This document shows, piece after piece, positions 1 to 40,751 of a DNA stretch of 40,751 nucleotides. The notes beneath the pieces are model-generated. The model worked only from the letters and a program-made list of their open reading frames with translations. It made no database searches and was not told the origin of the DNA. Position 1 is the stretch's first letter, and each line of letters starts with the position of its first letter. Source of the DNA: Escherichia phage HK022; the sequence record NC_002166.1; one strand, 5' to 3'. The position numbers and the translations under genes were made by a program.

Positions 1-49
1 GTTTGAATTTAACGCTAACCCGATTTTTTTAGTTTTAAGGTGTTGACAT

Positions 50-535
50 ATGGCAGATAAACGAATCCGTTCAGACAGTTCGGCGGCAGCGGTTCAGGCC
101 ATGAAAAATGCAGCTGTGGACACCATCGATCCGCCGTCCCATGCAGGTTTGGAGAAAAAAGCCGAACCATTCTGGCATGACAATATCAGATCGAAAGCTC
201 TGGACAGCTGGACGCCTGCCGACCTTCTAGCCGCCGTAGAACTTGCTAATAATCAGCTCTATATCACCGTTTTACGCAAGGATTTACGCAAAGAAGAGCG
301 CATACGCGGGGAGGAGCGAGACGAAGGCCTTATAAAAGACCTCCGCAAGCAAATTGTTGAGCTACAACGAACTATCCTGGCTCAGCGCCGCGACCTCCAG
401 ATCCACTCCCACGCAACCAACGGCGAAAGTCGCGACCAGAAGAAACGTAATCAGAACGATCGTGATGCACGGAATACCAAAAACGAGCATCAGGACCAGG
501 ACGATAACCTGATCGCCTTTCCCAAGCACGGATAA
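50..535 (+). CDS. terminase small subunit
   Basis: 161-aa ORF directly upstream of the large terminase; charged N-terminal half and acidic C-terminal tail typical of P27-type small terminases; ATG at 50. Confidence 0.75.
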   Translation: MADKRIRSDSSAAAVQAMKNAAVDTIDPPSHAGLEKKAEPFWHDNIRSKALDSWTPADLLAAVELANNQLYITVLRKDLRKEERIRGEERDEGLIKDLRKQIVELQRTILAQRRDLQIHSHATNGESRDQKKRNQNDRDARNTKNEHQDQDDNLIAFPKHG

Positions 536-39421: not shown

Positions 39422-39679
39422 ATGAGCACCCGAATAATAGAATGCGCCTCCAGAGCGGGGCGCGACTTCTCTGAGTTTCTGAAAGGTGAGAAAGACATGA
39501 TGCAGGCATTGTCATCTGTTGATCAGTTTGGCGAGCAACTCCGTATTAACGGTTGCGTCAACCATCACTTTGTCAGCTACATGATGCGTAATGCGGTCAT
39601 GCAGGCATTCATGGACATGGCAAAAGCCGTGAGGAAAGAAGAGCGCCGGCGTAAGCGAGCCGAAGAAAAAGCGAAGTAA
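39422..39679 (+). CDS. hypothetical protein (85 aa)
   Basis: ATG 39422 2 nt after upstream stop; basic C-terminal tail. Confidence 0.4.
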   Translation: MSTRIIECASRAGRDFSEFLKGEKDMMQALSSVDQFGEQLRINGCVNHHFVSYMMRNAVMQAFMDMAKAVRKEERRRKRAEEKAK

Positions 39680-40071
39680 CCATTACAAAGCTCATCTGCG
39701 GGTGGGCTTGATAATGAAACCGGAGTTAATTTCTGGTCACTAATTAACGGCAGCACCGCGAAACAACCCAAGCCAGAAAGTGGGGAAATAACACTGGCAG
39801 CCACTGAAAGATAAACCTCCTGCCTTATGGCAAAAAAGATTCTTTGTGGTGGCGGACTGATGGAAAGACATCGGTTATTGCAGAGGCCATTCAATGAGTG
39901 GTCTCGACAATGGCTTATACCCTACACGGGATAACTTAACTGATATCCCTTTTAACGGATAAACGGAGCCAACAATGGCAGAGATTATTCTCATGACTGA
40001 AGAACAGAAATTCCAGTTAGAGATTTACAAACTGGTCATGAACCAGAACGCCGCCGTGCATGGAGACTGGC

Positions 40072-40413
40072 ATGAACAAAGAGCCCCGCGTATATGGCAG
40101 CCGATGGGATAAGGCCCGTCTGCGTTTTCTCCAGCAGCACCCACTGTGTGTGATGTGCGAGCAGCAGGGGCGCATAACACCAGCAACGGTGGTCGACCAT
40201 ATCGTGCCCCACAAACTGAAAGATGCGCTTAAGTCAGGTAACCCTCTGGCCATATCGAAAGCACAGCTCCTGTTCTGGAGTAAAGAGAACTGGCAGCCAC
40301 TGTGCAAAGCGCATCATGACTCAACGAAACAGAGAATGGAGAAGAGCGGCGCGGTAATCGGTTGTGATGCCAACGGCTACCCGCTCGATCCTGCGTCTCA
40401 CTGGAGCACGTAA
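40072..40413 (+). CDS. HNH endonuclease (terminase-associated)
   Basis: 113 aa from ATG 40072 (GGAG 6 nt upstream); Cys/His motifs (C..C...DHIVPH...C..HH); sits immediately before the terminase genes on the circular map. Confidence 0.8.
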   Translation: MNKEPRVYGSRWDKARLRFLQQHPLCVMCEQQGRITPATVVDHIVPHKLKDALKSGNPLAISKAQLLFWSKENWQPLCKAHHDSTKQRMEKSGAVIGCDANGYPLDPASHWST

Positions 40414-40616
40414 TGAAAGACCTCATCATTGAATACCGAGACGGTAAGTTTGTTCAGCTGGCGATTGATGGCGTGGAGATGAAGCGCGTAACGTCTATCC
40501 ACTTCTCCCACACCGTAGGCGAGGACGTACCGACATTGACCGTCTCAGGACATGTGTGGTCCGAGTATGGGAAAGGCGATCACAAACTCGAACAGGTAGA
40601 CAAACATTCGGCATAG
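40413..40616 (+). CDS. hypothetical protein (67 aa)
   Basis: ATG overlaps the HNH stop; no recognisable motif. Confidence 0.4.
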   Translation: MKDLIIEYRDGKFVQLAIDGVEMKRVTSIHFSHTVGEDVPTLTVSGHVWSEYGKGDHKLEQVDKHSA

Positions 40617-40751
40617 CGCGGCGGCGGCAAGTCGATTATCTATCATGTGAAATCATTTCAAATGCAACGATATCAAATGAGAATGAATCGCATTCAGGGC
40701 GGGGGGGGGATCAAATCTTCAAAACCTTTGCCCTAAATGACCGCCGCCAAA

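Follow-up and report, generated by a model that had tools for sequence, protein, structure and literature searches.

A G-rich box next to the cohesive end of Escherichia phage HK022 as a candidate upstream sub-site of cos

Results

Genes at the right end of the HK022 genome

The window of this study is the whole stretch of DNA that was analysed, the 40,751 bp of Escherichia phage HK022 (NC_002166.1), and it constitutes the cos-to-cos genome of an HK97-like phage, complete and in virion orientation. On the circular or concatemeric map, where the right end meets the left one, the order of features is a DUF2560 remnant, an HNH endonuclease gene, a small gene named here orf67, an AT-rich block, a G-rich box, a 23-nt spacer, the cos core with a 10-nt 3' overhang (CGCCGCCAAA), the binding site of the small terminase (TerS) at +15..+29 and the terminase genes. 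HK97 shows the same gene order (HNH-cos-TerS-TerL).

The HNH endonuclease gene (40072..40413, plus strand, 113 aa) encodes a homologue of HK97 gp74. The open reading frame in full spans 40060-40413 (117 aa), with the ATG at 40060 as an alternative start. Judging from the sequence around both codons, the true start is probably the one at 40072, since a GGAG at 40062-40065 precedes it, with nothing comparable before 40060, and the gp74 CDS of HK97 starts at the corresponding codon. The protein matches the Pfam HNH family (25.7 bits against a cut-off of 21.4) and phrog_2323 (E = 3e-53), it is alike to gp74 over approximately the first 100 residues, and its exact sequence carries the name HNH endonuclease in NCBI. 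The C-terminus of gp74 is frameshifted in the HK97 reference. We also found the gp74-type HNH/zinc motif (CxxC ... DH ... N ... CxxHH) in the form of C26/C29, D42-H43, N73, C78 and H81-H82, with H82 reported as the catalytic residue (Moodley 2012 and Kala 2014). The only solved structure matched by sequence search is the HNH endonuclease of Geobacillus virus E2 (PDB 5h0m/5h0o), the two proteins having in common the motif region that surrounds the conserved DH, in a weak match (E = 3e-4 for 5h0m, over about 40 residues). Among 46 unique relatives, the variable sites of the HNH gene are distributed 29/24/80 over the three codon positions.

On the circular map this gene lies directly upstream of the terminase genes and on the same strand, being 387 nt from TerS across the junction. 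It ends 338 nt before the end of the window, instead of the approximately 390 nt given in the initial annotation. That annotation had also regarded the HNH protein as terminase-associated and needed for cleavage at cos in HK97-type phages, and this agrees with what is reported for its homologue. PMC9410871 describes an interaction of gp74 with TerL and a stimulation by gp74 of the cleavage of cos by terminase. According to PMC9410871 and PMC13595911 (the latter with reference to Moodley 2012 and Kala 2014), the protein is essential in vivo and its gene adjoins those of the terminase on the circular map.

The interval between HNH and cos contains a conserved small gene that had been overlooked in the first inventory of this region. 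This gene, orf67 (40413..40616, plus strand, 67 aa), begins in a stop/start overlap with HNH (TAATG) and has a GGAG 7 nt upstream of its ATG. Its variable sites amount to 30/19/51 in the three codon positions (66 sites each), which marks it as a real gene. It matches phrog_10282 (E = 1.5e-46), and its homologues form 74 clusters, none of them below 63% identity and with all named members belonging to Enterobacteriaceae. In both of the diverged homologues examined (2/2), the gene is located between HNH and TerS. It is annotated as hypothetical in HK75, in the mEp phages and in ECP1, and is left without annotation in the HK97 record. The AlphaFold model of orf67 consists of a 4-stranded beta sheet (mean pLDDT 72.6); the comparison of this model with PDB and BFVD gave no significant fold match, and the search of the protein against Pfam gave no match either.

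Upstream, a 45-aa ORF (39975..40112, plus strand) overlaps the start of HNH, as had been noted initially. Its residues 6-28 correspond to positions 2-24 of the 72 in the Pfam DUF2560 profile (P22 orf80-like; phrog_23132), and the rest is unrelated sequence that overlaps HNH. In relatives such as mEpX2 its annotation reads 'similar to N-terminus of Orf80 [P22]', and Klebsiella relatives carry a full-length DUF2560 gene of 81 aa upstream of HNH, in the same place. Within the overlap, variable sites fall at third codon positions of the HNH frame and not of the 45-aa frame. Taken together, the partial profile match, the variation in the HNH frame and the full-length Klebsiella gene identify this ORF, by sequence comparison, as the truncated remainder of a DUF2560 gene, lying at a mosaic joint, rather than as a full member of the family.

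Following orf67, the AT-rich block (40644..40691) contains short palindromes, for example TGAAATCATTTCA (inverted repeats I2 and I3). This block is conserved in close relatives, with a few substitutions distinguishing HK97 from the window, weakly conserved in Klebsiella phages and lost in the Cronobacter prophage L058, and its distance to cos changes with the length of the G run described below. An 8-nt inverted repeat formed by GGCGGCGG (40620-40627) and CCGCCGCC (40741-40748) was considered as a cos-spanning stem and rejected, because the upstream arm is missing in ENT39118, LAU1, SaltyDalty and the other classes. No promoter-like site emerged from a promoter scan, and the 4 terminator-like matches of the terminator scan all fall either within genes or farther upstream than the region. 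As for the minus-strand 'promoter' of the mEpX2 record, it is no more than a match to the consensus.

Cohesive ends and small-terminase binding site

The ends of the window are those of the HK97 (NC_002167) and HK75 (NC_016160) records, base for base at the first and last positions, and the HK75 record labels its last 10 nt 'cos site'. The initial annotation had proposed that the window boundaries coincide with the cohesive ends and that they should be compared with HK97 cos; the comparison yields identical termini and upholds the proposal. Megablast of both window ends against phage records recovered matches of the HK97 group with 98.5-99.7% identity. With respect to HK97, positions 1-535 differ in 1 base, the first 49 nt are identical, the last 17 nt (including CGCCGCCAAA) are equal and 1 substitution occurs within the last 21. 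We consider it very probable that this is the right-hand end of a complete genome of the HK97 type that runs from cohesive end to cohesive end.

The 10-nt 3' cohesive end (40742..40751, plus strand) is identical to the termini of HK97 and HK75. For HK97 cos, 10-nt 3' overhangs are described in PMC9410871 (Fig. 1 legend) and PMC11331095, although the former is internally inconsistent, as one sentence of its Discussion gives the overhang as 12 nt. The top-strand nick is located between 40751 and 1, and the bottom-strand nick would be located between 40741 and 40742. The record of Proteus phage Pm34 ends exactly at GAC|CGCC, the homologue of this bottom-strand position. Around it lies a conserved cos core, CTAAATGACCGCCGCC (40733..40748; consensus CCAAAKGACCGCCGCC), which is common to HK97-type, Klebsiella and other Terminase_4-type phages. 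The assignment of cos in the window is supported by its sequence identity with characterised relatives. In addition, a comparison of the terminal 1.5 kb at each end of the window found no shared repeat above 12 nt in length and thus no terminal redundancy, so that this result, together with the terminase of a cos phage of the HK97 type, sustains the initial choice of cos over a terminally redundant genome. The cos junction is carried by only 7 of 5,426 complete E. coli genomes, and a scan of genome contigs with a strict HK97-type pattern gave no match.

TerS (50..535, plus strand) belongs to the HK97 gp1 family (phrog_5601, E = 8e-85), has the coordinates of HK97 gp1 and is, as an exact sequence, the UniRef entry TERS_BPHK7; the ATG at position 50, already pointed out in the initial annotation, was confirmed. 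Its binding site CTAACCCGATTTTTT (15..29) is identical to the experimentally defined HK97 site. In HK97, EMSA and cryo-EM defined this 15-bp site at +15..+29, with Arg7 in contact with T16 and Arg128 with the C:G pair at 21; a 9-bp A tract is also necessary, and TerS binding needs only +15..+29 (PMC11331095). The window agrees, having T at 16, C:G at 21 and ATTTTTTTA as the A/T tract of 9 bp at 23-31. The packaging module is therefore of the HK97 type both by TerS and its site (gp1 family, +15..+29) and by its terminal sequences, which equal the determined HK97 cos ends. It is not of the lambda type, as TerS matches only the HK97-type phrog_5601 and the termini are those of HK97. Termini, 10-nt overhang, TerS site and TerS protein are the same in HK97 and its sister phage HK022, and a cos end with a gp74-type HNH protein is already established knowledge for these phages.

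A G run of variable length upstream of cos

The run of nine G at 40701-40709, which had been noted from the beginning, is the longest homopolymer of the window and its only G or C run of at least 7. A simple composition model predicts about 0.1-0.2 G/C runs of that length per window, so that by itself G9 is only mildly unusual. It forms part of a G-rich box, GGGCGGGGGGGGG (40697..40709), which is followed by the 23-nt spacer (40710..40732) that begins with ATCAAA and leads to the cos core. From the end of the run at 40709 there are 32 bp to the bottom-strand nick position deduced above (40741|40742) and 42 bp to the top-strand nick (40751|1).

The alignment of junctions from relatives with at least 95% identity in the flanks showed run lengths from G6 to G13: G9 in the window, HK97 and mEpX2, G13 in HK75, G11 in mEp234, G8 in mEpX1 and ECP1, and G6 in mEp506. 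Likewise, 41 IMG/VR loci recovered by flanking anchors contain G7 (8 loci), G8 (21), G9 (9) and G10, G11 and G13 (1 each). Two of the phages, mEpX2 and mEpX1, were sequenced twice (JQ and PV records) and their directly read run lengths agree, while for mEp234, also sequenced twice, an unchanged run was deduced from equal match lengths. The consistency of repeated sequencing in these 3 phages suggests that the length variation is real and not a read error. The run is preceded by C in the window versus CA in most relatives, as if an A-to-G change had extended G8 to G9; HK97 itself differs from the window in having GGGCA+G9 versus GGGC+G9.

The G-rich box in distant relatives

In more distant phages, the box is G-rich without a pure run, as in Cronobacter ENT39118 (GGGGGGAGGG) and Klebsiella ST13-OXA48phi12.2 (GGGGGAGGGGCGGG) and phi12.4 (GGGGGGAGGGGCGGG). 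The Klebsiella phages share HNH (73-77% identity) and DNA up to ...AAATGACCGCCGCC, whereas their TerS is of the Terminase_4 family and, over the N-terminal fragment compared, their TerL shows 23-25% identity. This places the mosaic joint inside the overhang. More generally, phages with a Terminase_4 (P27-type) TerS, such as Klebsiella ST13-OXA48phi12.2/12.4, mEp235 and Proteus Pm34, resemble HK022 in having HNH immediately upstream and a G-rich box, after which come 22 nt of spacer and a core that is identical or similar (...GACCGCCGCC). They differ in an unrelated TerS family, a TerL only 24-30% identical, another downstream sequence and the lack of orf67. In mEp235 and Pm34 the identity of HNH falls to 34-36% and the box is still 31 nt before GAC|; in Pm34 the core has diverged and the box is retained.

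IMG/VR was also scanned for the core alone, CCAAANGACCGCCGCC, leaving the G run out of the pattern. There were 151 matches with enough flank, 118 of which are cos-like with a G-rich block upstream, a count in which the core is fixed by the search pattern and cos-like and random matches are separated by G-richness itself. The other matches are unrelated coding sequence, except for one cos-like locus (L088) with a shorter box, GGGGCGGG. Among 97 unique cos-like sequences, the G-rich block measures 7-17 nt and ends 21-24 nt before the core, with a spacer of 22 nt in 51, 23 nt in 40, 21 nt in 5 and 24 nt in 1. The spacer sequence itself is diverged between classes and of low information, apart from its TCAAA-like start. 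These sequences fall in four classes by their terminase side, with unrelated TerS in those examined. Immediately upstream, 122 of 126 loci have a gp74-like HNH gene; HNH identity goes down to 41-45% among them and that of TerL to 24-30%. We propose that G9 is the HK97-lineage version of a G-rich box held at a fixed distance from the cut, as the comparison of these sequences suggests.

Discussion

For HK97 it has been established by others that TerS binds downstream of the cut, that terminase cuts cos with stimulation by the HNH protein, that terminase and gp74 introduce staggered nicks which leave a 10-nt 3' end and that, at termination, the downstream-bound TerS is a roadblock to the incoming motor. 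None of the papers searched describes G9 as a G-rich box at a fixed distance, and none in that literature tests sequences upstream of the HK97 cut. On the basis of the comparisons above, we tentatively suggest, with a probability of roughly 0.35, that G9 marks an undescribed sub-site of cos, a G-rich box conserved in HNH-dependent cos phages of Enterobacterales whatever the type of their terminase. Such a box would be a DNA-level element on the side of cos that enters the capsid last. If so, and with the same reserve, its 3' edge would stand about 32 and 42 bp from the bottom- and top-strand nicks, roughly 3 and 4 helical turns. Its 3' edge would be fixed and its length free, with no sequence further upstream requiring a fixed spacing to the cut. 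Because the box is a pure homopolymer in this lineage, slippage could make its 5' side grow or shrink and leave the distance to the cut unchanged.

Several roles may be envisaged for the box. It may act as a termination, pausing or positioning signal for the translocating motor or the portal just before the cut, in a similar way to lambda cosQ; it may be where the HNH protein makes contact or docks, the HNH gene being always found alongside it; or it may be a contact for TerL. Once the nuclease occupies the nick sites, the DNA located 32-42 bp upstream would be at or beyond the portal end of the DNA in the TerL assembly, within which roughly 25 bp have been seen (PMC10359639). This position makes a cosQ-like role plausible. 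In lambda, cosQ is needed for the nick at termination and its defects are suppressed by portal mutations, as summarised from the references in PMC11331095 and PMC10359639. The cos of lambda (cosQ-cosN-cosB) is likewise tripartite, with an upstream element, nick sites and a downstream small-terminase site, and cosQ, being required for termination, provides a conceptual precedent for an upstream sub-site, from which a cosQ-like G-rich box may be hypothesised. However, lambda differs in its 12-nt 5' overhangs, in the lack of an HNH protein and in the use of gpNu1/IHF at multiple R sites, and cosQ has no sequence similarity to the G-rich box.

A different explanation, to which we would give somewhat less than even odds, is that G9 has no role in packaging and is either a neutral homopolymer prone to slippage or a sequencing error, its presence in relatives being due to recent common ancestry only. 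Its variation from G6 to G13 among near-identical phages, the 0.1-0.2 such runs expected by chance, and the Klebsiella relatives, where the box has accumulated about as many substitutions as its flanks, are all in line with a neutral run, and no experiment in the literature searched supports a role for the box. However, a sequencing error sits poorly with the unchanged run lengths of the 3 phages that were sequenced twice. Neutrality, in turn, has to account for G-richness and a spacing of 22-23 nt that persist in four terminase classes, with HNH proteins of 34-45% identity and in spite of a diverged spacer, and for a 3' edge that stays fixed when the length of the box changes. The conservation of the box may also reflect mere shared ancestry of cos regions.

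The G run and its surroundings might instead act in the late mRNA, for example through a hairpin that modulates read-through or TerS translation, which we regard as very unlikely. The late transcript includes this region ahead of the terminase genes, the 187-nt junction RNA folds better than shuffled sequences (z = -2.46) and, in the single-sequence fold, the G run pairs with UCUUC...CCUUUGCCC. However, the consensus fold of 20 diverse cos regions retains only 4 pairs (-2.7 kcal/mol), there is no U tract, and what stays constant is the distance from the box to the cos core and not that to the start codon of TerS, which differs between classes. An Rfam scan of 39500-40751 (E <= 1) gave no match, and the single-stranded DNA fold of the region was close to that of shuffled sequence (z = 0.13). 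Finally, headful (pac) packaging, with window boundaries that come from opening a circularly permuted assembly at an arbitrary point, is improbable in the extreme, as it has nothing specific in its favour (even if missing redundancy is weak evidence against it, because assemblies collapse it) and it faces window ends exactly equal to those of HK97 and HK75, a TerS, a TerL and a TerS-binding site which are those of a characterised cos phage, the lack of repeated ends described above and the published end determinations of HK97 and HK022.

If the G-rich box is indeed an upstream sub-site of cos, the joint inside the overhang would split a unit formed by HNH, the G-rich box and the left half of cos from another formed by the TerS site and the terminase. 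HK97 is a structural model for cos packaging, yet only its downstream TerS site has been mapped. In this sense, a G-rich box at a defined spacing upstream offers a specific target for mutagenesis in the in vitro system already available, and its mutation could address what triggers cleavage at termination and also the contacts of the HNH protein. Furthermore, the signature of a G-rich box, 22-23 nt and CCAAAKGACCGCCGCC may serve to locate cos ends in prophages of this group and in metagenomic contigs. Several database records were also flagged for errors at or near cos.

Mosaicism and distribution of the cos region

We found a mosaic joint placed within the cos overhang itself (40742-40751) in three loci of the set of related phages and prophages, namely L021 (1380-1540; IMGVR_UViG_2563366924_000002) and the Klebsiella phages ST13-OXA48phi12.2 and phi12.4 (L053 and L054). 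These loci have in common with the window the HNH gene, the G box (a G-rich block at 40697-40709 in the window) and the cos core through CCGCCGCC, and past that point all carry a different packaging module with a small terminase of the Terminase_4 family, being the large terminase of both Klebsiella phages only ~24% identical to that of the window.

When the cos junction (window 40617-40751 joined to 1-52) was used as a query against complete E. coli genomes, it was present in only 7 of 5,426, which makes HK97-type prophages rare among sequenced E. coli. A wider distribution, in Enterobacter, Citrobacter and Cronobacter, is seen for the protein clusters of the HNH gene and of the small gene that follows it, orf67.

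The whole intergenic region is enclosed by the two 8-nt arms of a perfect inverted repeat (40620-40627 and 40741-40748; GGCGGCGG and CCGCCGCC). This repeat was considered as a cos-spanning stem and rejected; it is probably fortuitous, since the more diverged relatives lack the upstream arm.

Genes between gp74 and cos

Between the HNH gene (the gp74 homologue, 40072-40413, plus strand) and cos lies orf67 (40413-40616, plus strand), a conserved gene of 67 aa that begins within the stop codon of the HNH gene (TAATG). Apart from two chimeric loci, orf67 is confined to the HK97-type class of cos regions, and its named homologues belong in every case to Enterobacteriaceae prophages. For its product, structure prediction gives a small beta-sheet protein; a fold match to the predicted structure was sought and none was found. 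The initial annotation of this region did not describe orf67, and the HK97 reference record has no annotation for it.

In that same record the gp74 CDS encodes 119 aa (L001, NC_002167, 39054-39413). Comparison with window 40372-40413 reveals a stretch 1 nucleotide shorter in HK97 (AACGCGACCCG vs AACGGCTACCCG), as a result of which the last ~17 residues differ from those of the window HNH protein and of the members of a 689-member protein cluster, listed at 112-113 aa. Either the HK97 record, an old one, contains a sequencing error here, or the frameshift is real and present in the protein on which gp74 studies were done.

The record of Proteus phage vB_PvuS_Pm34 (KY420199; L173, L175) has its termini at GAC|CGCCCCC, which is homologous to the site of the bottom-strand nick in HK97. 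The gp2 of this phage, which the record calls a 'holin', belongs to the HNH proteins; it shows 36% identity to the HNH protein of the window and a clear CxxC...DH...CxxCH motif. In mEp235 (PV340540; L174, 366-551) an HNH-like reading frame with 34% identity lies unannotated upstream of cos, and short minus-strand hypothetical genes are annotated in its place.

Anomalous records and reported overhang lengths

Escherichia phage LMessi (PP925823; L009, 1290-1320) has the 26-nt cos core inverted (CGCGTTAAAATCAAACTTTGGCGGCG) between normal flanks, an arrangement that seems to be an artefact of assembly at the cohesive ends. In the IMG/VR copy of HK140 (L014; JQ086370/NC_019710), ...CCCTAAATGAC is followed by AGAGACGTAGTAGTCGGCGTCTCTCAAGGCACACAGGGGATAGG where the cos overhang is expected, and the non-cos stretch covers about 46 nt of the extracted sequence; AGAGACGTAGTAGTCGGCGTCTCTCAAGGCACACAGGGGATAGG seems to resemble sequencing-adaptor sequence, perhaps of the 454 type, left in the deposit.

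Regarding the overhang length, the legend of Fig. 1 in PMC9410871 gives 10 nt 3' for HK97, and the Discussion of that paper mentions '12-nt 3' overhangs' for HK97 and '10-nt 5'' for lambda, where the two numbers appear to be swapped.
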